IMG/VR virus record: IMGVR_UViG_3300037424_001256
Location: 1 to 64,000 of that record
Reading direction: 5' to 3' (one strand)
Length of the DNA: 64,000 nucleotides
Origin: a virus
Lineage: Duplodnaviria; Caudoviricetes
Every line of letters starts with the position of its first letter. The first letter of the stretch is position 1. Of this stretch, positions 27,171 to 51,159 are shown piece after piece. The notes beneath the pieces were generated by a model. The model was not told the origin of the DNA and ran no database searches. It saw nothing but the letters and a program-made list of their open reading frames with translations. A program made the position numbers and the translations under genes.

Positions 27171-27190
27171 TTAATTGGGGGAAAAATTAA

Positions 27191-27421: not shown

Positions 27422-27424
27422 TTT

Positions 27425-27753: not shown

Positions 27754-27781
27754 AAAATCAAATTGGAAGAGGTAGGACAAT

Positions 27782-28051
27782 TTGAGATTAGGGCAATTCA
27801 ATATCCAGAGAAGCGCTATCTTAGAATTACCAGAGTTGGTCATGGCAATTACTGCTAGGATGATTATTTATCGGGCTGAGATGATGTTCCATAAAGATTG
27901 CGTGGAGTACATTGCCATTTCTGATTTATTTGATGAGGTAGAGCAAGGGCAATGCCCACCGGAATATATGATAATCGTCGAGACAAACGAGGATGGCACA
28001 TATGTAATTTCAGCGCAAAAGAAGAGGGATAGGGTGACACCATTTCAATGA
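27782..28051 (+). CDS. conserved phage hypothetical protein
   Basis: VEYIAISDLFDEVEQGQCPPEY; GAGGTAGGA RBS. Confidence 0.6.
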   Translation: MRLGQFNIQRSAILELPELVMAITARMIIYRAEMMFHKDCVEYIAISDLFDEVEQGQCPPEYMIIVETNEDGTYVISAQKKRDRVTPFQ

Positions 28052-28068
28052 TGAGATGGTTTTTTTAG

Positions 28069-29451: not shown

Positions 29452-29476
29452 GGATTAAAGAGAGGGTGAGGAACTT

Positions 29477-30565: not shown

Positions 30566-30604
30566 TATAATATTTGCTTTTCTTTATTTTTTGGAGGAAA
30601 AGCG

Positions 30605-31168
30605 ATGAGATTAACGGAGGGGCAACAGAAAATTGTTGAAGACAACATTAGGCTAGCTGGTTACATGACTCAGAAATGGATTAAAAAAGGTGTACGCAAT
30701 ATCGACCAAGATGAGATATTTTCCCTGTTTTCCTTTGCGCTCTGCAAGGCAGCAGCTACCTTTGATCCAAATCGGGGAGCTAAATTCGCAACGTATGCTG
30801 GACGTTGTATGGAAAACGAACTAAAAATGGAATTTAGGAGAAAAGATAGAGGCGGGGGAGAAAATTCAGAGATTACATTTGGGACAGTTATTAAGTCAGA
30901 TGAAAATGGAGGCGAAGTTGAACTCCATGAAGTCCTTAGAGATGACTCCTATCTTGAATACGATAGAATTATTGATGTTATGTATGCGAAAGAAGCCCTT
31001 ATGATCTTGAGTGACAGGGATATGGCAATCCTCAAGGGTAAATATTTTTTCGAGGAAACACAAAGATCAATTGCAGGAAGACTTAATATTTCTCAATCGT
31101 ATGTTAGTAGAATTGAAAAGAAGATATTACGTAGGTTGAGGCAATGGAATAGAGGTAAAGTATCTTGA
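30605..31168 (+). CDS. sporulation-type (SigE/SigK-like) sigma factor 2, embedded in the sugar cluster
   Basis: KFATYAGRCMENELKM; TQRSIAGRLNISQSYVSRIEKKIL. Confidence 0.87.
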   Translation: MRLTEGQQKIVEDNIRLAGYMTQKWIKKGVRNIDQDEIFSLFSFALCKAAATFDPNRGAKFATYAGRCMENELKMEFRRKDRGGGENSEITFGTVIKSDENGGEVELHEVLRDDSYLEYDRIIDVMYAKEALMILSDRDMAILKGKYFFEETQRSIAGRLNISQSYVSRIEKKILRRLRQWNRGKVS

Positions 31169-31186
31169 GTGGTGGGGTAAATTATT

Positions 31187-31696
31187 ATGAGATCAAGCTT
31201 AAAGAAGTTTATCATTAGAACTTTAGGATTACGAGAAAATATATTTCATCCCCTCGTCCTTATTAATGGTGATCCAGACATAGGGGAAAATGTTTACATA
31301 GGAGCTTTGTCTGAAATAAATTCCAAGGGTGCGAGGGTATCCATTGGTATGAATTCTGATATAGCTTCTTTTGTCAGTATTAATGTTGCTGACAGTCACA
31401 AAAGATGTATAGGCATTCAGGATAATATAGAACGAAGAGATATCATAATTGGGAATAATGTGTTTATTGGATCTCATTCACTTATTAAAGGTGGTGCTAT
31501 AATTGGAGATTACTCCGTTATTGCTTCTGGTACGATAGTAGATGGAGGAACTATTCCACCATATTCTCTTGTCCATGGGAATCCCATGAAAATAAAGGTA
31601 GGTTATTACTTTGAAAAGGTCAATCCCACACAACAGACCAACATTAGGAAAAGAGGAGGAGAGGGCATCTATCCGGGCTTTAAGGTCTGGGATTAA
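31187..31696 (+). CDS. hexapeptide-repeat (LbH) acyltransferase
   Basis: IGENVYIG, IGMNSDIA, IIIGNNVFIG, IGDYSVIASG, VHGNP. Confidence 0.85.
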   Translation: MRSSLKKFIIRTLGLRENIFHPLVLINGDPDIGENVYIGALSEINSKGARVSIGMNSDIASFVSINVADSHKRCIGIQDNIERRDIIIGNNVFIGSHSLIKGGAIIGDYSVIASGTIVDGGTIPPYSLVHGNPMKIKVGYYFEKVNPTQQTNIRKRGGEGIYPGFKVWD

Positions 31697-32588
31697 TCAG
31701 GGAAAAGAAGTTAAAGCTTTCGAAGATGAATTATGTGAATATCTGGGATTACCAGAAGATCATGCAGTAATGGTAAGTAGTGGAACGGCAGCTCTTTATT
31801 TAGCAGTTAGGCATATAAAAAAGAGAGAAATAACTTATCCAATATATAGTTTCCCTAGTGTCAGGAATGCTATCCTAATGGCAAATCGTCAACCAATTGA
31901 AACTGAATTGTCAGATCCAAATCAAGATATATTTTGCCATATGTTTGGAAATGTAAATACCACATTAACCTACCCAATGAGAAGAGGGAAAATTTTTATT
32001 GAAGACGCAACTCAAGCATTGGGAGCTAAAGCGGGATCAGATTTTATTGGGACACTTGGAACCTATGGAGTATTTTCTTTTGCATCAACAAGGATCATAA
32101 CTAGTGGTGGACAGGGTGGAGCAGTTGTTTCAATGAATAAATCAAGGATAGATGAAATCAGAGATTTACGTGACCTTGATATACGTAATGATACAAAACA
32201 GAGATTTAATTTTGGAATGACAGATTTACAAGCAGCGATAGGGCGTGAGCAATTAAAGAAGATTGATAATTTTCTTGAACGTCGAGAAGAAATATTCCAA
32301 AAATATCTCAATGGTGGTCTTGATCTACTAAGAAATAAAAATGAATATATCACAGATGTCAGATATGGTGCCATTGTAAGGGCGCATAAACCCTTAAAAA
32401 TGATAACAGATCTAGGAAGGAGGGGAGTAAGGGCTTTAATTCCAATTGAAGATCTTGAAGTACCGAATGCTAAAATGTTTCACCAATCATATGCTCTAAC
32501 TAAAAATAGAGTTTCTTTACCTATTTACCCAACTTTGACAGATAAATATGTCGATTTGATTATTTCAGTAGCAAGAAAATATATCTAA
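31611..32588 (+). CDS. second DegT/DnrJ-family protein with the catalytic Lys apparently replaced by Arg
   Basis: MVSSGTAALY, IEDATQALGA, FSFASTRIITSGGQGG, FNFGMTDLQAAIG. Confidence 0.85.
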   Translation: MKRSIPHNRPTLGKEEERASIRALRSGINQGKEVKAFEDELCEYLGLPEDHAVMVSSGTAALYLAVRHIKKREITYPIYSFPSVRNAILMANRQPIETELSDPNQDIFCHMFGNVNTTLTYPMRRGKIFIEDATQALGAKAGSDFIGTLGTYGVFSFASTRIITSGGQGGAVVSMNKSRIDEIRDLRDLDIRNDTKQRFNFGMTDLQAAIGREQLKKIDNFLERREEIFQKYLNGGLDLLRNKNEYITDVRYGAIVRAHKPLKMITDLGRRGVRALIPIEDLEVPNAKMFHQSYALTKNRVSLPIYPTLTDKYVDLIISVARKYI

Positions 32589-32617
32589 AATGTTATAACT
32601 ATAGGGGGAAGAGTAAA

Positions 32618-33691
32618 CTGAAGATTATTAGTAGTCTAAAACAAACTATAAGCATTAATAAGAGCGATATCGGAGATGGATATCCAGTATTTATTGTTGC
32701 AGAAGTTGGAGTCACGGCAAATGGCTCACTAGAAAAAGGTAAATCATTAATTGAAATAGCTAAAAATTCAGGTGCAGATGCCGTAAAGTTTCAAACGATA
32801 GATTGTGATGATTTTATGGCAGATAAATCTGTTCTTTATAAATACGAGACACTAGAAGGATTCAAGGAAGAGAACATGTATGAAATGCTCAAGAAGAACA
32901 GATTTACGCAGAGTGAACTTATTGAATTATCTAGATATGCAAGGAAATTAGGAATTATATTCTACTTATCTGTTGATAGTATTAGGAGTGTTCAATGGGC
33001 CGATAATGCAAATTCAGCAACTTATAAAATAGGCTCTTGGGATTTGCGTAATTATCCCTTGCTTGAAGCAGTAGCTAAAAGTGGAAAATCAATCCAAATT
33101 GATTTAGGACCAGTTATTTTAGGCGAAATCGTGCAGATGCTTGAATTCCTAGAGTTTCATGGAGCGACAGAGATTATGCTTGTTCATTGTAGTCATGCAA
33201 GTAAATTGTCTAATCTAAATCTAAAAAGTATTACATATCTCAAAGATATGTTTAATGTTCCAGTAGGATACTCCGCAGATACTAGAGAGATAATACCTGA
33301 TATAACAGCAATATCTTTAGGTGCAAAAATGATTGAGAAAAGACTCACCTTAAGTCGTAACGAATTAGGCCACCATCATATTAAGGCTCTTGAGCCAAAA
33401 GAATTTATGGATTGGGTGGATATTATTCGAAAAACTGAAGCGACATTAGGACTTAAGAAATTAATACCTTCCTACGAGGATCTTTCAATCAAAAATCTAT
33501 ATTTCACTAGTATAGCTACTACCAGAGAAATAGCAGAAGGTGAATTCATAACGAAAGATATGCTTGGTGCAAAAAGACCGGGAACAGGTGTTTCTCCTTT
33601 ATATATGGATCAAATCATAGGTAAACGTACTAATAGATCATTTCAGGAGAATGAAATCATTGCTTGGGATGATTGGGGTAGTTTCAAATGA
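32618..33691 (+). CDS. NeuB/PseI/SpsE-family nonulosonate synthase 1 with SAF domain (probable CTG start)
   Basis: Frame open upstream of ATG 32816: FIVAEVGVTANGSLE..ADAVKFQT; YKIGS, GYSAD, IEKRLTL, KRPGTG; GGGGGAAG RBS before CTG 32618. Confidence 0.88.
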   Translation: MKIISSLKQTISINKSDIGDGYPVFIVAEVGVTANGSLEKGKSLIEIAKNSGADAVKFQTIDCDDFMADKSVLYKYETLEGFKEENMYEMLKKNRFTQSELIELSRYARKLGIIFYLSVDSIRSVQWADNANSATYKIGSWDLRNYPLLEAVAKSGKSIQIDLGPVILGEIVQMLEFLEFHGATEIMLVHCSHASKLSNLNLKSITYLKDMFNVPVGYSADTREIIPDITAISLGAKMIEKRLTLSRNELGHHHIKALEPKEFMDWVDIIRKTEATLGLKKLIPSYEDLSIKNLYFTSIATTREIAEGEFITKDMLGAKRPGTGVSPLYMDQIIGKRTNRSFQENEIIAWDDWGSFK

Positions 33692-34737
33692 AATTAATTG
33701 AAATTGATGGAAAATTTATATCAAATAATTCAATTTATACTATTGTAGAGTCCGGGATAAACCACAACGGTAGCATACAAACTGCTTACCAAATGATTGA
33801 AGTTGCGAAGGAATCTGGAGCAGATGCAATAAAATTCCAGACATTCAGGGCAGATGAATTTTGCGATAAAGAATCTTATCTATATCCAATTTTCAAAAAG
33901 TGTGAAATAAGATCGGATCATTGGCAGTATATCAAAGAAAGGTGCGATTTATTTAAAATAACATTTCTCTCAACCCCCCAGAACTTTTCGGACCTTGAAA
34001 TTTTATTGGGTTGTGGTGTTAAGGCAATTAAAATAGGATCTGATGATTTGACCAATGTTTCATTAATCAGGAAATATTCAGAAACTAAATTACCGATAAT
34101 ACTATCTTGCGGTATGGCTGATGAGTCGGAAATTAATATTGCAACTGAAACAATTAGGGAGTATGAGAGACACTATCCTTTGATATTAATGCATTGCACG
34201 TCATCTTATCCCACGTTTCCCAAAGATGTAAACATGAGGAAGTTAATTAGAATGGGAGTAAAGTATCCCGAAATGATACTTGGGTATTCTGACCACACAT
34301 ATGGACATATAGCTAGTGTCCTTGCGGTAGCATATGGTGCAAGAGTATTTGAAACACACTTTACGCTGGATAATAACTATATAGGACCAGATCATGAATT
34401 TAGTAAAAATCCAAAAGCACTGAAGATATGGGTCAATTCTATACGTGAAGCTTATGATATGCTTGGTAACAGTGATTTAAGGCCAACTAAGCAAGAAGAA
34501 GATATGAGGATTGTTGCGAGAAGAACTATAACTGCAATTAAAGATATCAGAAAGGGTGATATCTTCACTGATAAAAATATCGGTATGATGCGTCCTGCTG
34601 TTGGCTTACCATCATTGTATCTTCCGGTATTTTTGAATGCCGAAGCAGGGAGAGATATTGATATAGGGGAAAAATTGCGAAAAGAAGATATTGCATACCA
34701 AAAAATGATGAATAATCCAAAGCATTTCTCTGAGTGA
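33688..34737 (+). CDS. neuB: NeuB/PseI/SpsE-family nonulosonate synthase 2 with SAF domain
   Basis: ESGINHNGS, ADAIKFQTF, KIGS, HCTSSYP, GYSDHT, ETHFTLD, GPDH, MRPAVG. Confidence 0.92.
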   Translation: MKLIEIDGKFISNNSIYTIVESGINHNGSIQTAYQMIEVAKESGADAIKFQTFRADEFCDKESYLYPIFKKCEIRSDHWQYIKERCDLFKITFLSTPQNFSDLEILLGCGVKAIKIGSDDLTNVSLIRKYSETKLPIILSCGMADESEINIATETIREYERHYPLILMHCTSSYPTFPKDVNMRKLIRMGVKYPEMILGYSDHTYGHIASVLAVAYGARVFETHFTLDNNYIGPDHEFSKNPKALKIWVNSIREAYDMLGNSDLRPTKQEEDMRIVARRTITAIKDIRKGDIFTDKNIGMMRPAVGLPSLYLPVFLNAEAGRDIDIGEKLRKEDIAYQKMMNNPKHFSE

Positions 34738-34753
34738 AAAGAGGGATAAGTTA

Positions 34754-35470
34754 ATGATTCTCGTAGATCATCAAACTTCTTATTTACCATGGCTTGGGTT
34801 TTTTCATAGATTATCTTTGGCAGATAAGTATATTAATTTTGATCAAGTTCAATACTCACCGCGTAATTGGATAAATCGAAACAGGATTAAGGTTAAGGAT
34901 AGGTTCCAGTGGCTTACTATACCTATTTTGTCTTCTGGACATCGAGGTAAAGTCGTTGCTGATATGGAGATAAATAACCAGACAAGATGGCGAGAAAAAC
35001 ATTGGGGAACGATCCAACATGCATATAAAAAATCACCATACTTTAATGAATACGCTGGTTTTTTTGAAGATCTTTATAAAATGGAATGGCAATATCTCAT
35101 AGACATAAATGAATACATGCTTAAGTGGTTCGTAAAAACATTAGGCATAACGATAGAGTTGGATGATGCTGTAAATTATAAGTTTATAGGATCTAAAAGT
35201 GATCTTATTTTAGATATGTGCAAACAGTTGAATACGGATATCTATATATTTGGTGGAGAAGGTAAAAATTACGCAGATATTAAATCTTTCGAGAAGGAAA
35301 ATATTAAAACTTATTTCCAAGAGTATAAGCATCCTGAATACAATCAAAGATTCGGTAAATTTATTCCAAATTTGAGTATTATAGATCTGTTATTCAATGA
35401 GGGTCCGAAATCACTTGAAATAATAAAAAATGGTAACGTTACAAAAGAAACTTTAATGGAGATGATTTAA
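34754..35470 (+). CDS. wbqC: WbqC-family protein
   Basis: HQTSYLPWLGFF, DQVQY..WINRNRI, YKHPEYNQ, PNLSIIDLLFNEG. Confidence 0.9.
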   Translation: MILVDHQTSYLPWLGFFHRLSLADKYINFDQVQYSPRNWINRNRIKVKDRFQWLTIPILSSGHRGKVVADMEINNQTRWREKHWGTIQHAYKKSPYFNEYAGFFEDLYKMEWQYLIDINEYMLKWFVKTLGITIELDDAVNYKFIGSKSDLILDMCKQLNTDIYIFGGEGKNYADIKSFEKENIKTYFQEYKHPEYNQRFGKFIPNLSIIDLLFNEGPKSLEIIKNGNVTKETLMEMI

Positions 35471-36144
35471 TGTTCTCTGAGGCATGGGAGGGAAGGTTTT
35501 CCCAAGGAAAAAGCCATTCATTGTTTCCTTGGACGGATTTAATATCTTATATTTCCAAGTATAGAAAAATAGAAAGGGGGGATAAGGTATTAGAACTTGG
35601 TCCGGGTGTTGGGGCCAATATCCCATATTTCTTATCAAGGGGTGCTGAATACTATGCTATTGAGGGTAGTAAAACTGCAGTATCAGAAATTATCAAGAGG
35701 TTCCCAGAACTTAAGGATAGGATAGTGGTAGGAGATTTTACGGAAGCTATTCCGTTTCCAGATAAATTCAAATTGGTAATTGATAGGGGTTCAATTACCC
35801 ACAATTCTACCGTAGGGATACAAAAAGCATTAAAGATGGTTCACGATAAACTAGATAATGATGGAAAATATTTCGGAATAGATTGGTTTTCATGGTTTCA
35901 CGGAGAAAGACCAAGGGGTAAAAATGAAGATGATATTTACACCTACTCATTTGAAGATGGGAAACTCGAAGGTCATGGCAAGGTTCATTTCAGCACAAAA
36001 AGTCATTTATTTGAAATGTTTATCGATGCAGATATCAGAATTGAGGTATTACATCATAAGACTATTCAAGGAAAGCTGATTAGTGATGATCCTGAAAATA
36101 TTCAAGCAACATGGAATGTAGTGGGTAGAAAAATGAAAGCTTGA
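35470..36144 (+). CDS. class I SAM-dependent methyltransferase
   Basis: KVLELGPGVGAN, YAIEGS, VIDRGSITH. Confidence 0.85.
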   Translation: MFSEAWEGRFSQGKSHSLFPWTDLISYISKYRKIERGDKVLELGPGVGANIPYFLSRGAEYYAIEGSKTAVSEIIKRFPELKDRIVVGDFTEAIPFPDKFKLVIDRGSITHNSTVGIQKALKMVHDKLDNDGKYFGIDWFSWFHGERPRGKNEDDIYTYSFEDGKLEGHGKVHFSTKSHLFEMFIDADIRIEVLHHKTIQGKLISDDPENIQATWNVVGRKMKA

Positions 36145-36154
36145 GGAATTAAAT

Positions 36155-36853
36155 ATGAAATCCATGGCTATTATACCTGCAAGAAGTGGGTCAAAAAGAC
36201 TTCCCGGCAAAAACCTTTGTAAGATAAATGACAAAACTCTTCTTGAGTATGCAATAGAAGCAAGTTTGAGTAGCGCTATTTTCTCGGACATAATTGTAAC
36301 TAGTAATGATCCAGAACTTCTAGATTTGGTAGCTACTAAGTTTGGCGATAAAGTTCTCTATCACTTGAGGCCGTCCAGTTTAAGTCAAGACGATAGCATG
36401 TTAAAGACTCTATTAAAATATCTTATTGAATTATATGAAAATGAATCAAAAAACTTGGACTTGGTTATGGCTTTAATTTTGCCTACTTCTCCATTGCGAA
36501 CTTCAGAAGATATCAGATCTGCGTCAGCGCTCATGAAGAAAAACTTTGAAAATATTAATGGAGTCATGAGTGTTTCAAGATTAAGATATCCTCCACAACA
36601 CAGTTTATTAGTAGATAAAGATGGGTTTGTTCAACTTATGCACCCAGAGTATGTGGATATACAGAGTCAAAATTTAGAACCAGCATATATCCATGATGGA
36701 TCTATCATCATCGTAAAGCCTAAACAGTTTCTCAAGTATGGGGATTTTTATATGCCGGGAATTATTCCATTTTATATCGACGAAAATAGGGCAATTGATA
36801 TAAATACAGAGTTTGATTTGAAATTAGCCAGATATTTGATGAAGGAGAAGTGA
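36155..36853 (+). CDS. neuA: acylneuraminate cytidylyltransferase (NeuA/PseF/SpsF-like)
   Basis: AIIPARSGSKRLPGKN, RPSSLSQD, PTSPLR, IDINTEFDL. Confidence 0.92.
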   Translation: MKSMAIIPARSGSKRLPGKNLCKINDKTLLEYAIEASLSSAIFSDIIVTSNDPELLDLVATKFGDKVLYHLRPSSLSQDDSMLKTLLKYLIELYENESKNLDLVMALILPTSPLRTSEDIRSASALMKKNFENINGVMSVSRLRYPPQHSLLVDKDGFVQLMHPEYVDIQSQNLEPAYIHDGSIIIVKPKQFLKYGDFYMPGIIPFYIDENRAIDINTEFDLKLARYLMKEK

Positions 36854-36869
36854 AGATGGACGGTGATAC

Positions 36870-37574
36870 ATGACTAAGATTTTGGTGGTTTGCGCTCACC
36901 CAGATGATGAAGTTCTCGGATGTGGTGGCATGTTAGCAAGATTAACTAGGATTGATAAGCAAGAAGTCTTTATTGGGTATCTTAGTTATGGACTTACATC
37001 TCGGATTAATACCCCGGAACTTGATGAAGTGGAAAAGGAAAGAGTCAAGGAAAAAAGTAGAAAAGCTATTGAAGTATTAACAGGTTTACCAAGGCCAATC
37101 ATTAAAAAGAATCTCAGATTCGCAAATTATCCAGACAATATGTTTGATAGCGTCCCATTGTTGCAGATTACAAAGGTTATCGAAGGTTGGGTTGATGAAA
37201 TTAAGCCAGATGTTATATTTACTCATTCCAATAAAGATCTAAACATAGATCATAGGATTACGCATGGTGCCGTATTGACAGCTACAAGACCAATTCATGG
37301 TGAGCACATAGTCAAAACGATCTATTCTTTTCAAATTCCCTCAAGCACAGAATGGTCATTTGGTAATTATGGAAAATTTAATCCGAATGTTTTCTTGAAT
37401 GTAACAGGGTTCCTGCACAACAAACAAGAGGCTCTAGAATGTTACGATACCGAGGTGAGGGAATTTCCACATCCACGTAACTTATTGGCGATATATTACT
37501 CAGCTCATCTAGCTGGTTCTGTAGTAGGAATGGCTGAAGCTGAAGCGTTTGAGTTAATCAGGGGGTTAATTTAA
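36870..37574 (+). CDS. PIG-L/LmbE-family deacetylase
   Basis: VCAHPDDEVLGCGG, FTHSNKDLNIDH, SSTEW, HPRN, AEAF. Confidence 0.9.
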   Translation: MTKILVVCAHPDDEVLGCGGMLARLTRIDKQEVFIGYLSYGLTSRINTPELDEVEKERVKEKSRKAIEVLTGLPRPIIKKNLRFANYPDNMFDSVPLLQITKVIEGWVDEIKPDVIFTHSNKDLNIDHRITHGAVLTATRPIHGEHIVKTIYSFQIPSSTEWSFGNYGKFNPNVFLNVTGFLHNKQEALECYDTEVREFPHPRNLLAIYYSAHLAGSVVGMAEAEAFELIRGLI

Positions 37575-37701: not shown

Positions 37702-39052
37702 TTGAAAGATTTAATATCAAACTTAAGTAGGTTAAGTAAAGAGCAGAAAGCAAAGTTCATAGAAAGCTTGAGCCCTGAAGAACTTATAAACATTGCCTAC
37801 GATTGGGAGGGGGTGTTCGCTCGTCCCAGCCAATTAGAACCAGCCGGGGATTGGACCTATTGGTTGATCCTAGCTGGTCGTGGCTGGGGTTAGCTAACCT
37901 ATAGGCAAAACTAAAACTGCTGGCGAATGGATAAGAAAAAGAATATATACAGGAGAAAGCAGACATCTTGCGTTAATTGCTCCAAGGGCAGCAGATATCC
38001 GGGATGTTATGATAGAAGGGCCAAGTGGCTTGCTTAATTGTTTCGAGCCAAGTCATAGACCAATTTACGAACCTTCAAAGAGAAGAGTAACATTTCATAC
38101 TGGAGCTACGGCAATAACTTATTCCGGTGATGAACCAGATCAATTGCGCGGCCCCAATATAGACTCATTTTGGGTCGATGAGTTGGCGGCGTGTAGGTTG
38201 CAGAAAGAGATCATGGAAATGCTTGCCTTTTGCTTGAGAATTGGTTCTAATCCAAGAGGTATAATTACCACAACTCCAAAACCAACAGTCACCGTTAAGG
38301 GGTTGGTAAGACAAAAAAATGTAGTAGTAACAAGAGGTTCAACTTTTGAAAACAGGGATAACTTATCACCTGTTTTTTTTGACTCCATTATTGGAAAGTA
38401 CGAAAATACGCGTATTGGCAGACAAGAGTTGATGGGTGAAATACTGGAAGATAACCCAAAAGCTCTTTGGAAGAGTAGCGAAATAGACCAGCATAGGGTA
38501 AGTAAAGCACCTATCTTTAGAAGAATTGTTATTGGCGTTGATCCAGCGATTAGCGCAAATAAAAAGTCTGACGAAACAGGAATTGTTGCAGTTGCAAAAG
38601 GAGTGGATGATCATTTCTACGTCTTAGATGATCATTCTTGCAAGGAAACTCCCTCTAAGTGGGGTAAGGCTATCTGCAATCTATATGATAAATGGGAGGC
38701 AGACAAAGTTATTGGAGAGGTTAATCAGGGTGGAGATATGGTTTCTTATGTCATCAAGAACATTGATCCTTTGATTAACTTCAAATCAGTCCGGGCAACA
38801 AGAGGTAAGAAACTTAGAGCTGAGCCTGTAGCTAGCCTCTACGAATCTGGAAAAGTTCACCATTTAGGAGTATTTCCAGAACTTGAAACACAAATGGTAG
38901 AGTGGAATCCAGAGGAAGATACAGGATCTCCCGATAGAATAGATGCCTTATGTTGGGCAATTTGGGAATTGATGGATCTTAAAAAGAAGGGCATAGGTAA
39001 ATACAATCCTAGTGGAATAACTGATTTCAAAAGAGAAAGTCCAAATATGTAG
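37702..39052 (+). CDS. terL: terminase large subunit interrupted by a 16-nt insertion (stop + frameshift) in Walker A
   Basis: 37702-37890 ends LILAGRGWG; frame resumes GGC AAA ACT at 37904 (GKTKTAGEW) into ORF 38009-39052 with WVDELAA, GVDP, DETGI, ESGKVHH, PDRIDA. Confidence 0.88.
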
Positions 39053-41167: not shown

Positions 41168-42631
41168 GTGATGCATGTTCAGGAGTATTTAGATGTAGTC
41201 TTAGATACTCTCAAAAAATTTATTCCAAAAGAAACATTTGATAAAATTAATGAAATAGCAGTTCCAGAGGAGATCATAAAGGGAGTGACACCTTTTAGGG
41301 ATCTCCCACTTGCTGATAGAGAGATGGAGTGGGATGGATCACAGGCAGATAAAAATATTAGGGAATGGGCCGGGGGCGATGATAAGGAAAATATAAATTG
41401 GAGTAAGTATAGCCAAGGGTTCTTATGGGTTGATGATGAAAATAAGGAATCTTTTGGTGGATATAAGTTTCCAATTGCTAATGTAATTGAAGGTAAATTA
41501 ACAGCAATACCGAGAGGAATATTCGCTTCTGCAGGAGTTCTCAATGGTGCCATGTTAGAGGGAGGAGTATCCCAGATAAATGTTCCAAGTGAAGATATAC
41601 AAGGTATGAAAAATCACGTTGACCGTTATTATGCAAAAATGAGAGAAACTTGGGATGATGATAAATTAGTTAGTCCATTCAAAAAGGAAACAGATATTGT
41701 TGAAAAAATAAATGATCGAGTGCGAATGGTGAAGAGTTCAGGTAAGCCAAATTCTGAAATAGCATTTGTCGGAGCTTCACCGGGAAAGATTGAATACTTA
41801 AGAGGTGAAGCGTTTGTTGGACCATGTGGAGAAACATTCAATGAATCATACATTAAGCCATTAGGATTAAGTCGTGAAGATGTATTTCTAACAAATGCTG
41901 TCCCTACGCTATTGATTGATGACTTCGGAAATGTCAGGGAGCCAACAGATATTGAGGTCGGGGATTGGCATGGATGGTTGGATGGTGAATTAGAAAGAGC
42001 TAATCCAAAAGTAATAGTGGCCTTGGGTCAAAAGGCAAAAAAAGCCCTTGGAGAAGATGTTGATTTTGTCTTACCACACCCTATGGCAATCCGAAGATTT
42101 AGTGATTCTGGTGAAGTAGGTAGAAAACTGAAACAGATAAAGCTTAAACTAGACGAAATTAATAAGGGATTGCCAAGTGTAGGTGATGTTCATATAGATT
42201 CCACTAATTGGAAAAGACCTAAGAGAAACAAATCTAGTATCCAAAAAGATGAAATTATCTATGCCGATATAATCAAGGCCGATATAGAAAAGAAACTTGT
42301 ATATGGCATAGTTTTAGAGCCGGGAAGTGTCGATGCTCAGAATGACACAATAAGCGCAGATGAGATAGAAAGATCTGCACATATGTATTTAAGGGATTCC
42401 AGAGTTGTTGGAGAGTCACACAAGGGTAAAGCTGGAGCAAATGTCGTGGAGAGTTATATTGCTCCTGTAGACTTTACTCTTGGTGGTCAAAACGTGTCTA
42501 AGGGAACATGGATAATGGTCGCTAAAATCAATGATGAAAAACTTTGGAATGACACGAAAGACAAAAAATTCAATGGTTTTTCGATAGGGGGATTTTCTAG
42601 GAGAATCCCAGTAGATAAACCAGTCAGCTAA
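41168..42631 (+). CDS. XkdF-like prohead serine protease fused to a uracil-DNA-glycosylase-like domain
   Basis: Middle: IAFVGASPG..FVGPCG..VFLTNAV..PKVIVALG..LPHP; C-term: LVYGIVLEP..DAQND..H..VESYIAP..GTW..NGFSIGG. Confidence 0.8.
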   Translation: MMHVQEYLDVVLDTLKKFIPKETFDKINEIAVPEEIIKGVTPFRDLPLADREMEWDGSQADKNIREWAGGDDKENINWSKYSQGFLWVDDENKESFGGYKFPIANVIEGKLTAIPRGIFASAGVLNGAMLEGGVSQINVPSEDIQGMKNHVDRYYAKMRETWDDDKLVSPFKKETDIVEKINDRVRMVKSSGKPNSEIAFVGASPGKIEYLRGEAFVGPCGETFNESYIKPLGLSREDVFLTNAVPTLLIDDFGNVREPTDIEVGDWHGWLDGELERANPKVIVALGQKAKKALGEDVDFVLPHPMAIRRFSDSGEVGRKLKQIKLKLDEINKGLPSVGDVHIDSTNWKRPKRNKSSIQKDEIIYADIIKADIEKKLVYGIVLEPGSVDAQNDTISADEIERSAHMYLRDSRVVGESHKGKAGANVVESYIAPVDFTLGGQNVSKGTWIMVAKINDEKLWNDTKDKKFNGFSIGGFSRRIPVDKPVS

Positions 42632-42635
42632 GGGG

Positions 42636-43556
42636 GTGACACAAATTAATATTACTGAACTTAAGGGTTTAAACGTTGAAGAAATATCTTTAGTAGCTAA
42701 ACCAGCAAACGAAAGGATATTCTTACTTTTAAAACAAGAAGGAGGGTCCACCTTGGATCAATTGGATGATGTCTTGAAATCACTTGCTGAGCTAGATATT
42801 GATCTAGAGAATGCTGAAAGCATCGAAGATATCATGAAAAAGATGAAGTTGAGTGAAAAGGCTTCTAAGGCTTGCAAAGGTGCTCTCAAACTAATGTCGG
42901 CATATAAGGAAGAAATGCCGAAAAGCTTCATGGAAAAGCTGATTAGCATGGCTGGTTATGGTGATATGGAAGAAGAAGAAGTGGAAATGCAAAAACCAGC
43001 AAAACCAAAAGGAGGAAAAGAAATGCCTAAAACAACCCCTGTTGTCGAGGAAAAAAAGAGGATGAAGAAAGAAGACGGGTCATTAGATTTTGATGCCATT
43101 CCTGAAGAGTCACGGGAACTTGTTCAGATGCTTTGGAAAGAACATGAAACCGCAGTTCAAAAGGCTCAAAAACTTGAGACTGACCTTAAAATTGAACGAG
43201 ATATCAGGGTTACTAAAGAATTCCAAGATAGAGGGAAGGGATTCCCCAATATCGGTACAGCCGAAGTGGTTGGCGATGTCTTGAGAAAAGCCTTTGACGT
43301 TTCCGATGAATACGGAAATCAATTAGAAGTAATTCTCAGAGATGCTAATACCAAGATTGAAAAATCGGAACTGTTTATCGAGAAGGGAACCAGTGCAAGA
43401 AGTATCGCCGATAGTTCATGGGCTAAGATCGAAGAACTTGCAAAAAGTATGGTCACTAAGGGTCAGGGTCAGACAATGGCACAAGCCATTGATAGAGTTT
43501 TGGCTGAAAATCCTCTACTCTACGAAGAATACACCAAAGAAAGGAGCGGTAAATAA
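42636..43556 (+). CDS. capsid scaffolding protein
   Basis: EEISLVAKPAN start, acidic/coiled-coil body, position before head genes. Confidence 0.7.
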   Translation: MTQINITELKGLNVEEISLVAKPANERIFLLLKQEGGSTLDQLDDVLKSLAELDIDLENAESIEDIMKKMKLSEKASKACKGALKLMSAYKEEMPKSFMEKLISMAGYGDMEEEEVEMQKPAKPKGGKEMPKTTPVVEEKKRMKKEDGSLDFDAIPEESRELVQMLWKEHETAVQKAQKLETDLKIERDIRVTKEFQDRGKGFPNIGTAEVVGDVLRKAFDVSDEYGNQLEVILRDANTKIEKSELFIEKGTSARSIADSSWAKIEELAKSMVTKGQGQTMAQAIDRVLAENPLLYEEYTKERSGK

Positions 43557-43957
43557 TGGCTTACGATATCAGAAATTTAAGCTTCTCTCTGATTGCATCA
43601 AGTAGCTACACAACTAGCCAATATAAAGCTGTCTTTGCATCAACTGCTACAGCGGATAATTTCGTAATCCTCGGAACTACAGTTGGAAATAGGATTCCTG
43701 TTGGAATTCTTCAGAATAATCCCGGCAATGGGGAATCAGGAGAGATTTGGGTTCCCGGATGTATTTCTAAAATAATTACTGGTGGGATCATTTCTCTTGG
43801 GAAAACATTTTATATTAAGGGCAATGGGAGAGCTTATAGTAGCACTGGCACTAACCCTTCTGCGAGATCTTTCCTTTATGGACCTACCCTTGAAGCTGCG
43901 TCAGCATCTTCGGATGTTATTACGGTCAGTTTTAATACCATAGGGACAACAACCTAA
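43556..43957 (+). CDS. capsid cement/decoration protein, Ser/Thr-rich
   Basis: VGILQNNPGNGE; position before the MCP. Confidence 0.65.
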   Translation: MAYDIRNLSFSLIASSSYTTSQYKAVFASTATADNFVILGTTVGNRIPVGILQNNPGNGESGEIWVPGCISKIITGGIISLGKTFYIKGNGRAYSSTGTNPSARSFLYGPTLEAASASSDVITVSFNTIGTTT

Positions 43958-43985
43958 TTAAATTGTTTGTAAAAATTTAAGATTT

Positions 43986-44045
43986 AGCACGGTCTAGGGC
44001 ATTGCCCGAAATTACTGAATCCCCCCCAGTAAGACCGTGCTTTTT
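43986..44045 (+). terminator. three-way-junction hairpin followed by a T tract, between cement and MCP genes
   Basis: AGCACGGTCT/AGACCGTGCT closing stem with GGGCA-t-TGCCC and TTACTG..CAGTAA sub-hairpins. Confidence 0.55.
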
Positions 44046-44133
44046 GTTTGCCTTTTTAGGGGGTTTTTATTCCACGTGAACATCGTTTTATGTAAATTTA
44101 AATTTATGAAAATTGGAATAAATTGAAGAAGGA

Positions 44134-45117
44134 GTGAGTAATTTGGGAAATCCTACCATATCCGACGTACATGTCGATAGGGCATTGACCAACATTTCCA
44201 TTGCGTATATCCAAGATACCGAACGCAATTTCATTGCTAATAAAGTTTTCCCTATAGTTCCAGTTAATAACAAAAGTGACAAATACTTCATATTTTCGCA
44301 AGCAGATTTTTTTAGAAATGAGGCAAAGGTAAGGGCACCGGGAGCCGAAACTGCTGGTGGAGGTTATAGGCTTAGTACCGATAATTACTCTTGTGATGTA
44401 CTCGGATACCATGCGGATCTCGACGACCAAACAAGAGCAAATGCAGATCAACCATTACAACTTGAGAGATCCCACACCATTTATGTAACACAACAAATTC
44501 TGCTTAAACGTGAAGTTGAATGGGTTAGTCATTTCTTCACAACTGGCTTATGGACCGGATCTACAACGGGTACAGATCTAGTTGGTGGCGTAGACTTTAC
44601 TCAATGGGACAATATCGTTAGTACGCCTATTGAGGATATCACCCAACAAGCTGATAGCATTTCTCGAAAAACTGGATATCGTCCAAATTGTCTGGTTCTT
44701 GGCCCAGAAGTATACACTACCCTCAAAAATCATCCAGATATTCTTGACCGTGTTAAATATACCCAAAGGGGGATTATCACGGAAGATATCTTAGCGGTAC
44801 TATTTGATGTTGACCGAGTTCTTGTTCCTAGAGCTGTACAAAATACAGCAAATGAAAATACTACTGCTTCATATGCATTTATTTATGGGAAAAATGCCTT
44901 CCTTGGATACGCAGCACCAGCACCCGGATTGTATCAGCCATCGGCTGGTTATATGTTTACTTGGCAGGGTCTATTCGGAGCTGGAGCAGAAGGTGTCCGT
45001 ATGAAAAACTTCAGAGTAGAAGTAAATGCATCTAATCGTATTGAGGGAGAAGCTGCTTGGTCAATGAAAGTTGTTGGAGCAGATTTGGGATGCTTCTTCT
45101 CATCTGCTATAGCTTAG
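44134..45117 (+). CDS. major capsid protein
   Basis: 327 aa; HVDRALTNISIAY, VFPIVPV, YRPNCLVLG, HPDILDRVKY; follows scaffold and cement. Confidence 0.85.
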   Translation: MSNLGNPTISDVHVDRALTNISIAYIQDTERNFIANKVFPIVPVNNKSDKYFIFSQADFFRNEAKVRAPGAETAGGGYRLSTDNYSCDVLGYHADLDDQTRANADQPLQLERSHTIYVTQQILLKREVEWVSHFFTTGLWTGSTTGTDLVGGVDFTQWDNIVSTPIEDITQQADSISRKTGYRPNCLVLGPEVYTTLKNHPDILDRVKYTQRGIITEDILAVLFDVDRVLVPRAVQNTANENTTASYAFIYGKNAFLGYAAPAPGLYQPSAGYMFTWQGLFGAGAEGVRMKNFRVEVNASNRIEGEAAWSMKVVGADLGCFFSSAIA

Positions 45118-45134
45118 GCATAAATATTAGGGTA

Positions 45135-45187
45135 TGGAATAAAAATGACTCAAAAACTTAGTTGTTGATGAGTCATTTTTTATTCCA
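45135..45187. terminator. long inverted repeat after the MCP gene
   Basis: TGGAATAAAAATGACTCA...TGAGTCATTTTTTATTCCA. Confidence 0.6.
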
Positions 45188-45204
45188 ATACCATTTCCAT
45201 TTTT

Positions 45205-45606
45205 ATGGAGGTGAAATCATTAATGGGGTTTGAAAAAGAACAACGTCCAGCCATGAAGACGTTTGATGAAAGATATAGAATTCAGGCAGTAACAAGTACA
45301 GGAACAACAATTCTTGGCTATGGAGTTACTACTCTATCGTCTACTAAAGCGGGTACTCTAACATTTATGATAGATCCACCACTCTATGCAGGAGTAGATA
45401 AGACTATTATTGCATTACTTCAGTCAGGTTCATCTTCATTGTTTAGAGTAATTCCAAATACTACAACTGTAACATTTAGGTCAACCGGAGCAGGAACTAG
45501 AGCGTGTGCATTTAGCTCTACTGGAGAATCGGCTCAATTTATTGCAACATCTGCACTTAGGTACCATTGTGTATCGAATATGGGATCAACTTTTGGATCA
45601 TCTTAA
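45205..45606 (+). CDS. Ser/Thr-rich putative head accessory protein
   Basis: Paralogous to the C-terminal domain of 45649-46536; ends STFGSS. Confidence 0.65.
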   Translation: MEVKSLMGFEKEQRPAMKTFDERYRIQAVTSTGTTILGYGVTTLSSTKAGTLTFMIDPPLYAGVDKTIIALLQSGSSSLFRVIPNTTTVTFRSTGAGTRACAFSSTGESAQFIATSALRYHCVSNMGSTFGSS

Positions 45607-45648
45607 GGGTAAAATTATGAAACAATGAGGAAAGGAGGAGAATTATAA

Positions 45649-46536
45649 ATGGGCAATGAGTATATAAAAAGACCGATTTTTTCTAATATGTTAAGGAATC
45701 TTCCGTCAACTGATAGCTATCTACTTTCAGATGGAGATATTATCCTACATTTGCGTTCTACTGCTGGGGTTACAAGTGTAAAGATATTAGATAGCTCAAC
45801 TAATGTAGTTGCTAGTATTAATTCTGCTGGTGCTGCCAGTTTCTCAGGTTTAGCTGCTACGAGCGATTTCGATGTAACTGGAAGTTTCTCTGTTAATACA
45901 GATGATTTTGTCGTTTCAGTAACATCTGATATATCAATGAAGCCAACTGGTGGAAATTTCAGAATTACGTTAGGTGATGCAGTAGGGGCAAAAAAATTAT
46001 TTATCAAAGATTCGGCAAATAGTACAGTAGCAACAATTGATTCAGATGGCACAGCTACAGTAGTTAAATTAACAGCTAGTAGTGATATTTCTGGTCAATC
46101 GGTCAGTGCAACGAGCAATCTTTCTGGTGTTCACGTAACAGCAAGCTCTAATTTCGTAGGCACTGGCTTCGTACAAGGTGGTGGTGGTTTTGTTGATAGC
46201 TATTTGGCTAAGACAACTGCTACAGTCGGAACGGCTATCACAAATAAAGGTTTTACATCATTGGCCCAAGCCAATACAACCCAAGTGACTTGGACGTTGG
46301 CAGATCCAACGGCAGCAGGATTTACTAAAACAATTTTTGTGCTCAGTCAGACTGGTACTACGGCGAGAACTTTTATATTACCAGCATCAACGAAGACTGT
46401 CTTTTCTTCATCTCAAGGATCTACTGGTAGAAAAATTACGTTCGATGATCCGAGGGAATCAGTTTCGATGGTGAGCGCATCGACAACTACGTGGTTAGTT
46501 TACAATAGTCAATTCGCTACATTTGGATCGTCTTAA
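45649..46536 (+). CDS. Ser/Thr-rich putative head fibre/decoration protein
   Basis: AGGAGG RBS; beta-rich, many S/T; ends ATFGSS. Confidence 0.7.
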   Translation: MGNEYIKRPIFSNMLRNLPSTDSYLLSDGDIILHLRSTAGVTSVKILDSSTNVVASINSAGAASFSGLAATSDFDVTGSFSVNTDDFVVSVTSDISMKPTGGNFRITLGDAVGAKKLFIKDSANSTVATIDSDGTATVVKLTASSDISGQSVSATSNLSGVHVTASSNFVGTGFVQGGGGFVDSYLAKTTATVGTAITNKGFTSLAQANTTQVTWTLADPTAAGFTKTIFVLSQTGTTARTFILPASTKTVFSSSQGSTGRKITFDDPRESVSMVSASTTTWLVYNSQFATFGSS

Positions 46537-46550
46537 TCACAACCTAATAA

Positions 46551-47513
46551 TTGAAAAAAGAGGAGGACAGGGGCAATCCTTTGGGGGGAGATGCCCACTT
46601 ATTTATGAATAGAAGCGAGACTATAGACACTAGCAAGCCCATAGAAATATCTAATGTACCAGTAGAGTCACCGTTAGACTTAGAAAAAGTAACAAAAATA
46701 AAGAAAAACATATCAGAATTCAAGAGACATTCCGACAGTGTTATGATTTTGGGATTTGCGCCTGATAGTTTGAAATGGGCACCACTGGACGCTAGCAACA
46801 TCGATATATGGGCTCTGAACGAATTATACATGGATAAACCGAAAATTGCCGTTAGAGCTACTGCTTGGTTTCAGCTTCATGGTTACGAGCCTCCGGTAAT
46901 CAGAGATCCTAATCAAGTAAAAAGCCTATCATTTTTAAAATGCCCCGTTTTAATGTGGAGAAAACATCCAAATATTCCAAATTCTATTGAATATCCATTA
47001 CGGGAAGTATTAGAAGAATTTGATATATATGGTGATGATATGGCATTGGATCAACCTGATATCAGACAGAGAGCCTATTTTACTAACTCAATTTCATGGA
47101 TGATAGCCCTTGCGATCAAGATGGGTTACAAGGATATTCAGGTTTATGGTGTCAATATGGCACAGGATCAAGAGTTCCAACACCAAAGACCAAGTTGTGA
47201 GTTCTTCCTTGGGTGGGCTAGGGGGAAGGGTATCAAAATATACAAACCACCAGTCTCAGACTTGTTATTATCTACTTTCTTATACGGATACGATGATGCA
47301 TCATCGTATATGCAAAAATTGGAAGCAAGAAGGATAGAATTAATTGAGAGGGTTGAGGGAACTAGGAGACAAAGAATCCAGTTCCAAGAACAAAGCAATC
47401 AACAATTGCAAGCAGAACAGAATTTATTGGGTGCATTGCATGATGTGGAATACATTATGAGACTAGGTAATCCTCTTCAACCGGATAAATTCTCAAAACC
47501 TAAAGGGGGATGA
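46551..47513 (+). CDS. GT42/Maf-like (sialyltransferase-fold) glycosyltransferase candidate
   Basis: VMILGFAPDSL..DIWALNELY and FTNSISWMIALAIKMGYKDIQVYGVNM parallel CstII VIIAGNGPSL..DVFRCNQFY and ITSGVYMCAVAIALGYKEIYLSGIDF. Confidence 0.65.
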   Translation: MKKEEDRGNPLGGDAHLFMNRSETIDTSKPIEISNVPVESPLDLEKVTKIKKNISEFKRHSDSVMILGFAPDSLKWAPLDASNIDIWALNELYMDKPKIAVRATAWFQLHGYEPPVIRDPNQVKSLSFLKCPVLMWRKHPNIPNSIEYPLREVLEEFDIYGDDMALDQPDIRQRAYFTNSISWMIALAIKMGYKDIQVYGVNMAQDQEFQHQRPSCEFFLGWARGKGIKIYKPPVSDLLLSTFLYGYDDASSYMQKLEARRIELIERVEGTRRQRIQFQEQSNQQLQAEQNLLGALHDVEYIMRLGNPLQPDKFSKPKGG

Positions 47514-47802: not shown

Positions 47803-48264
47803 TTGATCCAAAATATGGTCTGGAGCTATGATGGAAATCCCGGAGATAACCCCAAGGATGAGGTGCGCTTTCTTCTCGGAGATACTGATTCAGCAGATCA
47901 ACTCTTGAGTGACGAAGAGATTTATTACTTGCTCACCTATTGGCCTAATCCTATTGCTTCTGCCGCCATGGGAGCAGAAAGACTTGCCACTCAATTCGCT
48001 AGAGATGCATCAACTAAAGCGGTAGGAGACTTAAAAATTACCCTCACTGAGAAAGGTAGGTCTTTTAGCGCTCAGGCATCGAGACTTTGGATCTTATCAA
48101 GACAATATAGAGGAAGACCACAATGTTATGCTGGTGGAATTTCTAAGGCCGATAGGCAAAACCAACTCAATAATAGTGATAGGGTACCACCTGATTTCTA
48201 TAGGCATATGAATGACTTACCGGGCACAGGAACAGAGTTAGGATCTTCCTTTGGGTCAAGTTAG
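47803..48264 (+). CDS. head-tail adaptor/connector
   Basis: DEVRFLLGDTD..LLSDEEI; ends SSFGSS. Confidence 0.75.
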   Translation: MIQNMVWSYDGNPGDNPKDEVRFLLGDTDSADQLLSDEEIYYLLTYWPNPIASAAMGAERLATQFARDASTKAVGDLKITLTEKGRSFSAQASRLWILSRQYRGRPQCYAGGISKADRQNQLNNSDRVPPDFYRHMNDLPGTGTELGSSFGSS

Positions 48265-49030: not shown

Positions 49031-49447
49031 ATGATATTAGATGAAGTTGCTAAGTATCTCCAAACTAGCGGTGTTGGAACAATCGGTACAAATATTTTTA
49101 AATCATATGGTACCAATCTCCCTAATACTTCCCTCTTCATTTACGAAACAGGAGGATTTAGACCGCAAGATACTTTCGGGTCAACATGTCAAGCTGCGTG
49201 GGAAAATCCAAACATTCAGATTGTATCAAGGTCAACAAATTACGTAACTGCAAGAAGGACCGCAGAAAATGCTTATAGGGCTCTTATTAACGTAGTGAAT
49301 GAAACTTTACAAACATCAAGTTCCGATACGGGGAGTTTTTATCTCAGAATATTCGCTAATCAATCTCCATTCAGGCTTGGTGTTGATGAAAACGACAGAC
49401 ATCAAATAGCTTGTAATTTCGGGGTGATGAAGACATTTTCAACTTAA
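49031..49447 (+). CDS. tail terminator / minor capsid-type protein
   Basis: ETGGFRP, QIVSRS, QSPFRLGVDENDR..NF. Confidence 0.7.
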   Translation: MILDEVAKYLQTSGVGTIGTNIFKSYGTNLPNTSLFIYETGGFRPQDTFGSTCQAAWENPNIQIVSRSTNYVTARRTAENAYRALINVVNETLQTSSSDTGSFYLRIFANQSPFRLGVDENDRHQIACNFGVMKTFST

Positions 49448-49465: not shown

Positions 49466-50173
49466 TTGACTGGAACTCATGGTAAACATGCCCGGACTTA
49501 TATTAACGGGTTTGATCTAAGCTCATATCTGAATAGTTTTGGTGTAGCACAAACAGCCGATACCGTAGAGACAAGCGCATTTAGTTCCAGTGATAAAACC
49601 TACGTAGTTGGCTTAAGGGATGCTACTGTTTCCGCAGAAGGTTTTTTTGCAGGAAGTACAGTCCAGACTGATTATGTATTTAACCAAGTTCTAGGATCTA
49701 CTGTTATTTGGTCATACTATCCTGCTGGCCCAGCACTAAGTAACGCTGGATATGGAGTTAAATCAATTGAAACAGCATACGAAATAACAAGTCCAATTGA
49801 TGGCGTTGTTTCTATATCTGTTGAGGGTCAGGCTATCCTTGGTGCAGATAGAATATTATCGCATCATGACCTAATATCTGAATCAACAACCGGGAACGAG
49901 ACATCTATTGATGCTACAGCTGCCAGTTCAAGGGGAGCTACGGGCTATTTACAGATAACAGGTATTACAGGTGGAATAACTGCAACTATACGTATTCAAG
50001 ATTCGTCTGCTGGAAGTACATTCGCCGATCTAATTTCATTTACTGCTTCTACAGGAATAACTGCCGAGAGATCCATATCATCAAGTGGGACAATAAAGCG
50101 TTTTACTAGGGCAGCGTGGACGCTTTCCGCTGCTGGAACAGTTACATTTAACGTTGGGATGAAGAGAAAATAA
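49466..50173 (+). CDS. tail tube-like protein with C-terminal extra domain
   Basis: HGK..VETSAF..YVVGLRDATVS, paralogous to 50193-50606. Confidence 0.65.
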   Translation: MTGTHGKHARTYINGFDLSSYLNSFGVAQTADTVETSAFSSSDKTYVVGLRDATVSAEGFFAGSTVQTDYVFNQVLGSTVIWSYYPAGPALSNAGYGVKSIETAYEITSPIDGVVSISVEGQAILGADRILSHHDLISESTTGNETSIDATAASSRGATGYLQITGITGGITATIRIQDSSAGSTFADLISFTASTGITAERSISSSGTIKRFTRAAWTLSAAGTVTFNVGMKRK

Positions 50174-50636: not shown

Positions 50637-50993
50637 ATGACAAAGTCTAAAAGGAGATTATCAACGGATGATATTCTCAAGTCCACCGGACTAATTGAGA
50701 AGGAAGTTGAAGTTGAGCAATGGGGTGGATCAGTAATGATCCGGGAATTCAGTAAAGGTAGGCAACAACAGATTAGGAAAGAAGCAAGCGTTAGCGATGA
50801 GATAGACGTTGATAAATTAGAGCTTTTAATGTTTATTCATGGCGTTATTGATCCTGTTTTTTCTGAACAGGATTATTATGCGCTCAGAGAAAAATCTGCA
50901 ATGGCAATCGACAAGGTTCTTAAGGAAATTATGGCTATATCAGGTCTGGGTGAAAAGGATATTAAAGAAGCTGAGAAAAAATTTCGCACTTGA
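50637..50993 (+). CDS. tail assembly chaperone
   Basis: EVEVEQWGGSVMIRE; between tube and tape measure genes. Confidence 0.75.
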   Translation: MTKSKRRLSTDDILKSTGLIEKEVEVEQWGGSVMIREFSKGRQQQIRKEASVSDEIDVDKLELLMFIHGVIDPVFSEQDYYALREKSAMAIDKVLKEIMAISGLGEKDIKEAEKKFRT

Positions 50994-51159
50994 TGGAGAT
51001 TTTAGATTCCAATTCATATTGGCTAAAGATCTAGGTAAGACAGTTAATGAAATAAGACAAATGGGAACGGTTGAGTTTTATCAATGGATGGCCTTTTATT
51101 CTTATCAAGAAAAAATGAGGAAAGCTGAAGAAAATAAAGCAAAATCAAAAAGAAGATAA
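50983..51159 (+). CDS. frameshift extension of the tail chaperone (GT-like)
   Basis: Overlapping +1 frame FALDGDFRFQFILAKDLGKTVNEI..EFYQWMAFY with no own RBS. Confidence 0.55.
   Translation, partial: FALDGDFRFQFILAKDLGKTVNEIRQMGTVEFYQWMAFYSYQEKMRKAEENKAKSKRR

Follow-up and report, generated by a model that had tools for sequence, protein, structure and literature searches.

A candidate CMP-nonulosonate transferase with a sialyltransferase-like fold in the head module of an uncultured phage

The window analysed here, i.e. the whole 64-kb stretch of DNA taken from an 88,032-bp uncultured phage record (IMG/VR IMGVR_UViG_3300037424_001256), carries in its head module an open reading frame (ORF) whose predicted model has a fold like that of glycosyltransferase family 42 (GT42). 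We describe this ORF as a candidate transferase of a nonulosonic acid (NulO) activated with cytidine monophosphate (CMP). The late region lies entirely on the + strand and runs from a NulO sugar cluster through the terminase, the portal, a fusion of uracil-DNA glycosylase (UDG) and protease, the scaffold and the cement gene to the major capsid gene; downstream of the latter follow ORF133, ORF295, the candidate transferase, neck proteins, the tail terminator and two tube proteins (Table 1). The sugar cluster is situated 9 kb upstream of the transferase. The intergenic gaps from the major capsid gene over ORF133 and ORF295 to the transferase are small (87, 42 and 14 nt), and therefore these last four genes are probably expressed as one late transcript.

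Table 1. Features of the late region (positions are those of the window)
Feature	Position	Strand	Characteristics
NulO sugar cluster, putative donor pathway	26178-37574	+	Pfam and NCBIfam matches
Capsid cement (decoration) protein	43556-43957	+	Pfam PF09956 Phage_cement_2, 29.9 bits, above cut-off; 25.6% Ser+Thr; ends GTTT
Major capsid protein, context marker	44134-45117	+	phrog_1005, E 1.5e-93
ORF133, proposed acceptor	45205-45606	+	27.8% Ser+Thr; gp9/gp10-like beta-sandwich spike domain; ends TFGSS
ORF295, proposed acceptor	45649-46536	+	29.8% Ser+Thr; C-terminal ~120 aa a paralogue of ORF133; ends TFGSS
Candidate CMP-nonulosonate transferase, 320 aa	46551-47513	+	GT42-like fold, predicted model
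phrog_1732 protein, between head and neck genes	47803-48264	+	ends SFGSS; possible further acceptor
Tail terminator	49031-49447	+	Pfam PF12691, 47.3 bits; ends FST; possible further acceptor
Tail tube protein	49466-50173		26.8% Ser+Thr

Fold, conserved residues and distribution of the candidate transferase

Where translation of the transferase begins is uncertain (TTG at 46551, TTG at 46581 or ATG at 46605), and residues 1-55 are little conserved and modelled with low confidence. In the AlphaFold (AF2) model, which was built from 55 homologues and has a mean predicted confidence (pLDDT) of 85, a GT42-like nucleotide-sugar domain extends over residues ~60-245 and is followed by a single long helix (residues 250-306). 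The protein contains 8.7% Ser+Thr, and its translation, judged by eye, has no visible signal peptide or membrane segment.

When the model was searched with Foldseek, all 13 rows listed at E ≤ 1e-3 were Cst-I, CstII and a Pasteurella sialyltransferase (best E 8.8e-6), with Cst-I and CstII matching at E values from 9e-6 to 6e-4. In VIA-align the model superposed best on Cst-I (Z 11.4, rmsd 3.3 over 165 residues), then on the MptE pyrophosphokinase 8SD5 (Z 8.8), Maf 5MU5 (Z 8.7, 159 residues aligned) and SteA (Z 8.6), and at lower scores on eukaryotic GT29 enzymes (Z 6-7) and thiamine pyrophosphokinases (Z 6.0). An earlier note on this DNA had described a CstII/Maf-like ORF directly after two very Ser/Thr-rich head genes, and the match to Cst-I together with the composition of ORF133 and ORF295 (Table 1) confirms that description; it had also named a non-glycosyltransferase fold as the outcome that would speak against it, and Foldseek returned the GT42 sialyltransferase fold.

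The relation to CstII is also detectable in the sequence. A full-length profile searched against PDB was dominated by coiled-coil matches from the C-terminal helix (CstII at E 0.45), which was cured by trimming to the catalytic domain: CstII was then found at E 8.6e-4, and the nine best matches were all sialyltransferases. The alignment pairs the N-terminal nucleotide loop, places Asn31 of CstII opposite Asn90 of the transferase (Asn in 45 of 46 sequences) and aligns the Thr131/Ser132 segment of CstII to Ser182, which is likewise conserved in 45 of the 46. Within the family H110, Y176, T178, E208, E217 and Y245 are invariant (46/46), and N179, Q212 and S215 (45 sequences each), R213 (43) and D237 (42) are nearly so.

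The family is nevertheless set apart from those already defined. The match to the Pfam family CST-I (PF06002) stays below threshold (E 0.003, 17.5 bits vs a cut-off of 25), and searches of PHROGs and NCBIfam gave no family for the transferase, nor did Pfam give one above threshold. As regards GT42, the protein thus has the single-domain modified Rossmann (sialyltransferase) fold, with a sequence score under the threshold and without conservation of the CstII catalytic residues. As regards the Maf/MptE-like family PF01973, it has the fold of the central domain of Maf and lacks the sequence match; nowhere in the 88-kb genome did PF01973 match at E ≤ 1, and it was found in 13% of the members of a distant Atlas cluster (score 0.82). 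The CstII/Maf likeness seen in the earlier note therefore holds for the fold, and it does not extend to the family thresholds or to the catalytic His and Tyr of CstII. The transferase belongs to a separate family within the sialyltransferase/Maf/MptE fold group and is a member of neither GT42 nor Maf.

This family is large. A full-database profile search with the transferase returned 5,256 cluster representatives at E ≤ 1e-3 (1,941 at E ≤ 1e-30), and at least 442 IMG/VR contigs encode a member; the source names given for members are all 'hypothetical' or 'uncharacterized'. It is at the same time almost absent from cultured phages and cellular genomes. The 50,697 deposited phage records contained a single, distant relative (30% identity), located at 7917-8720 of Microcystis phage Mvi-Yong1342-1 (PP496355.1; locus L157), annotated as a 'type 11 methyltransferase' and directly preceding terS, and one pattern scan over 185,579 species genomes found 11 loci, all on short contigs of metagenome-assembled genomes. 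The Microcystis phage could be an accessible test case for activity of the family with a host-made sugar. Some phages carry two copies, in tandem in L089 (IMGVR_UViG_3300033141_002294; 10980-11513 and 11570-12112) and 15 kb apart in a NeuB-bearing viral record (G078).

Linkage to a nonulosonic-acid pathway and to a Ser/Thr-rich spike family

The sugar cluster encodes a PseB-like dehydratase (Polysacc_synt_2), two DegT aminotransferases, a hexapeptide acetyltransferase (Hexapep), two NeuB proteins (217 and 148 bits), WbqC, a methyltransferase, a PseF-like cytidylyltransferase (CTP_transf_3, 70 bits; best NCBIfam match PseF at E 1e-40, below the equivalog cut-off) and PIG-L. All steps looked for in a CMP-NulO pathway, i.e. 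NulO synthase, CMP-cytidylyltransferase, 4,6-dehydratase and aminotransferase, are thus present. Because the dehydratase, the aminotransferases, the acetyltransferase, NeuB and the PseF-like enzyme occur together, the gene content points to a CMP-activated 5,7-diamino sugar as the predicted product, of the pseudaminic or the legionaminic type, between which the NCBIfam scores do not settle. The two NeuB-family genes are adjacent (32816-33691 and 33688-34737), the first being shorter and beginning at profile position 32, and close relatives likewise have two NeuB genes. A sigma-70-like gene (30605-31168) lies within the cluster and a second one at 23710-24264. The search of the 88-kb genome for other transferases found no Maf, GT2 or GT1 gene.

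We next consider whether the pathway and the transferase occur together in other phages, using IMG/VR loci with our own ORF calling and BLAST and hidden Markov model (HMM) labelling for gene contexts. NeuB (PF03102) was found in 18 of 20 transferase-bearing viral records, including all six that were at least 90% complete; the two records without it are 60% and 38% complete. As a control we used phages with a capsid protein ~50% identical, most of which have no transferase near the capsid gene. In the 17 capsid-related control records (23-99 kb, six of them at least 90% complete) neither the transferase, anywhere in the record, nor NeuB was found (0/17 each), while two further transferase-bearing records that came up in the capsid set both had NeuB. 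Altogether, NeuB was present in 20/22 records with the transferase vs 0/17 without it (Fisher p 3e-9, for records that are not independent), and CTP_transf_3 gave the same split (20/22 vs 0/17). The co-occurrence with CMP-sugar genes that the earlier note had put forward as a check is therefore clear-cut, and its absence, which would have counted against the proposal, is decisively contradicted. Among the 50,697 deposited phage records NeuB is otherwise rare: tblastn found it in 3, of which one is a bacterial contig. At two loci (L031 and L045) the transferase adjoins the sugar genes themselves. A collection of NeuB-bearing viral records, scanned with a 6-sequence alignment (a 14-sequence one being too divergent), led us to reject the use of this family by all phage NeuB clusters; viral NulO has several routes, of which the family provides one.

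On the acceptor side, the Ser+Thr content of the cement protein, ORF133, ORF295 and the tail tube protein (Table 1) compares with a mean of 13.2% (standard deviation 5.5) over 73 ORFs of the window. Across 61 loci, the gene just upstream of the transferase had at least 20% Ser+Thr in 82% of cases vs 23% of background genes (Mann-Whitney p 2e-20). Moreover, these upstream proteins form one family with a common C-terminal domain of ~120 aa, which an iterative HMM search detected at 50 of 80 transferase loci and at none of 70 control loci. A word-indexed protein search had reached only close relatives of ORF133, and it was the iterative HMM search over fetched loci that united the family. ORF133 consists of the shared domain alone and ORF295 has it C-terminally (E 1e-10 between the two); searches of Pfam, PHROGs and NCBIfam gave no family for either protein. 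The AF2 model of ORF133 (pLDDT 81) is a beta-sandwich that matches the tailspike Solidus gp83 of an Acinetobacter phage (Z 11.1), the N-terminal gp10-like domain of the CBA120 tailspike TSP4 (Z 10.2), a Klebsiella phage baseplate protein (Z 10.2) and the capsid spike of Pseudomonas phage Pa223 (Z 7.4). Because of this spike-domain fold and its position right after the capsid gene, ORF133 would most simply be a capsid spike or knob.

A second kind of association concerns the very ends of virion proteins. The pentapeptide [ST]-F-G-S-S forms the C-terminus of ORF133, ORF295 and the phrog_1732 protein, and G-T-T-T that of the cement protein; a terminus of this kind is seen in none of the other real genes of the window. 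We compared how often orthologues end in [ST][ST] in transferase-bearing phages and in phages that lack the enzyme, against a background of 6% of all ORFs. The cement protein had this end in 7/10 cases with the transferase vs 0/21 without when orthologues were assigned by homology, and in 11/17 vs 0/29 when they were assigned by position; the corresponding values were 14/21 vs 2/46 for the phrog_1732 protein and 11/19 vs 0/19 for the tail terminator. The C-terminal Ser/Thr ends of these three families thus vary with the presence of the transferase. The major capsid protein had such an end in 1/21 vs 0/60 cases, and the portal, scaffold, tube and two neck proteins had none in either group. Whole-protein Ser+Thr content of the capsid, scaffold, portal, protease and tube proteins did not differ between phages with and without the transferase, and the major capsid protein showed no Ser/Thr enrichment. 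The richness of the tail tube protein was rejected as evidence: the medians are equal (0.245 with vs 0.246 without the transferase), and therefore it is a trait of the tube family. Of the earlier note's statement that the cement and tail tube proteins are Ser/Thr-rich, the contents stand for both proteins, and for the tube they are unrelated to the transferase.

These associations recur in different genomic settings. A quick maximum-likelihood tree of the capsid protein divides the transferase-bearing phages into at least two clear clades and two single branches (four changes). The trio of transferase, sugar cluster and spike gene also occurs alongside capsid proteins for which BLAST finds no relation to that of this phage (L013, L016, L030, L039, L043 and L052), and the transferase module is found in genomes of 40-100 kb. 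The transferase is fixed in the head module, between the capsid and the neck genes, across phages of 35-85% identity, and the spike-transferase pair remains adjacent while the position of the sugar cluster varies.

Other genes of the late region have features of their own. The prohead protease (41168-42631) is of the XkdF type (residues 368-480) and is fused to an N-terminal domain of the UDG superfamily (residues 192-311, 68.5 bits); the fusion is retained in close relatives (65-82% identity), and more distant relatives have the protease part alone. The large terminase ORF (38009-39052) begins at position 55 of the Pfam Terminase_6N profile, with the N-terminal ATPase part outside the ORF. 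The tail assembly chaperone (50637-50993) has an overlapping second frame (50839-51159) directly before the tape measure gene, which is the usual layout for a programmed frameshift.

Proposed modification of the virion and its alternatives

We think it probable that the candidate transferase is a cytoplasmic, phage-specific enzyme of GT42/Maf-type fold that puts the phage-made CMP-NulO on Ser and Thr residues of virion proteins, so that the virion would be coated. Late in infection, the pathway of the sugar cluster would make a CMP-activated NulO of the pseudaminic or legionaminic type, and the transferase, co-expressed with the head genes, would move the NulO onto Ser/Thr hydroxyls of virion proteins in the cytoplasm, acting in the way in which Maf modifies flagellin. 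The likeliest acceptors would be ORF133 and ORF295, two capsid-spike proteins of gp9/gp10-like type whose genes lie immediately before that of the transferase. Probably the sugar would also be added to short Ser/Thr tails at the C-termini of other, exposed virion proteins, namely the tail terminator, the phrog_1732 protein and the cement protein. The resulting virion would bear an acidic coat of nine-carbon sugars, for which shielding, solubility, host-surface mimicry and reversible binding are possible purposes. The earlier note had proposed that the ORF is the transferase missing from the sugar cluster and completes a donor-transferase-acceptor system, and the comparative evidence, i.e. the linkage to NeuB and CTP_transf_3 and to the spike family and the co-variation of the C-terminal Ser/Thr ends, supports this proposal.

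Several observations weigh against virion modification by this enzyme. Tyr156 of CstII, which together with Tyr162 binds phosphate, is aligned to Ala204 (Ala in 42 of the 46 sequences), and His188, the catalytic base, corresponds to His211, a position at which no more than 13 of the 46 members, including that of this phage, have His; beyond residue 206 the residues were matched by eye from spacing rather than by structure superposition. As the equivalents of His188 and Tyr156 are not conserved, the chemistry may differ from that of CstII. Furthermore, MptE and SteA have the same fold, and therefore the fold by itself is no proof of sugar transfer. Of 40 other viral records with NeuB, no more than 7 had a member of the transferase family (4 of 8 among the complete ones), and NeuB was not found in the genome of the Microcystis phage that carries the distant relative. 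Finally, the strongly supported branches of the capsid tree alone would allow a single origin of the transferase; the association is replicated, but the p values overstate its independence because the sampled records are related to one another.

It is unlikely, in our view, that the enzyme is a NulO transferase that modifies lipopolysaccharide, capsule, S-layer or flagellin at the host surface and leaves the virion unmodified. On that reading, the altered surface of the infected cell could, for example, prevent superinfection or stop progeny from adhering to debris. Most characterised phage-encoded glycosyltransferases have host envelope glycans or DNA as their targets, the acceptor of GT42 enzymes is lipooligosaccharide and that of Maf is flagellin, and the co-occurrence with NeuB and the cytidylyltransferase fits a host-surface target equally well. 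The remaining associations argue for the virion: the transferase stays inside the head module across divergent phages, it is coupled to a Ser/Thr-rich family of spike fold, and virion proteins gain Ser/Thr ends only where it is present. In addition, the translation has no membrane segment visible by eye.

To a similar degree we doubt that the protein is something other than a glycosyltransferase, either a nucleotide-binding enzyme like MptE or thiamine pyrophosphokinase, working on a small molecule or in a step of the sugar pathway, or an assembly factor of the spike that has kept an old fold. Such a role would agree with the occurrence of the fold in the MptE kinase, SteA and thiamine pyrophosphokinases and with the loss of the CstII catalytic His and Tyr, and the long C-terminal helix could serve assembly. 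Yet the best matches in both structure and sequence are all sialyltransferases and score above the kinases, and residues at the sugar-nucleotide contacts of CstII are conserved (N90 and S182 in 45/46, T178 in 46/46). Moreover, the pathway already has its cytidylyltransferase, and the genome offers no other candidate transferase. Joint inheritance of the sugar cluster, the spike gene and the transferase in a few phage lineages without a joint function is very improbable, for although the records are relatives of one another and the strongly supported branches would be compatible with one origin in the capsid family, the trio recurs with unrelatable capsids and in genomes of different size, the spike-transferase pair stays adjacent as the sugar cluster moves, and the C-terminal Ser/Thr ends of three other protein families track the transferase.

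Beyond this phage, we suggest only tentatively, and with some doubt, that the family of thousands of clusters caps Ser/Thr C-terminal tails and a dedicated spike with phage-made NulO. In that case many uncultured phages would be coated, the acceptor code would be a small residue followed by two terminal Ser/Thr residues (small residue-Ser/Thr-Ser/Thr-end), and the enzymes, whose catalytic residues would differ from those of GT42, would constitute a new family of glycosyltransferases.

If virion modification by NulO is true, it would be a new phage surface chemistry, performed by an unnamed enzyme family of ~5,000 sequence clusters. It would bear on how sediment and soil phages interact with host surfaces, particles and predators, and auxiliary sugar genes in viral metagenomes could be read as virion chemistry rather than as host metabolism. 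It would also provide a compact set of donor, enzyme and acceptor tag for placing sialic-acid-like sugars on proteins.

Comparison with known systems

Phage particles with glycosylated proteins are known for a few actinophages, and nonulosonic acids on proteins are known from bacterial and archaeal flagella, pili and S-layers. The earlier note was aware of no description of their combination, and our full-text literature search, to which the primary Che8 paper did not belong, agrees with it: no paper on nonulosonic acids on phage particles or on the transferase family was found.

The closest relatives in structure are Cst-I and CstII of Campylobacter jejuni (GT42, PF06002; 2P56 and 1RO7). The phage transferase shares with them the single-domain nucleotide-sugar fold (Foldseek E 9e-6), the remote sequence similarity over the N-terminal nucleotide loop, the Asn31 motif and the Thr131/Ser132 helix, and, as we infer, the CMP-nonulosonate donor. 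It differs in that it remains below the Pfam threshold, has Ala in place of Tyr156 and a variable residue at the His188 position, and possesses its own set of invariant or near-invariant residues. Furthermore, it has a long C-terminal helix where CstII has a membrane-association tail, and it is encoded in a head module, with Ser/Thr of proteins as the proposed acceptor vs lipooligosaccharide for CstII.

Among phages, virion glycosylation is known for the mycobacteriophages Che8 and Rita, according to texts that cite the primary work (PMC11256854, PMC12582341). In the Che8-type system (Freeman et al. 2023, via PMC11256854 and PMC12582341), as these texts describe it, phage-encoded transferases decorate capsid proteins with shielding glycans, which is what we propose in outline here. 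In contrast to the present case, its hosts are Actinobacteria, and the citing texts report neither NulO nor a phage-encoded sugar pathway of such a kind (PMC11256854, PMC12582341).

The closest parallel in the proposed action is Maf (PF01973; 5MU5), which belongs to the same fold superfamily (Z 8.7), works in the cytoplasm and is likewise encoded with the sugar pathway. The phage transferase is much smaller and lacks the flanking helical domains of Maf, and its acceptors would be virion proteins instead of flagellin. Like Maf, it would modify Ser/Thr of a structural protein with pseudaminic or legionaminic acid ahead of assembly.

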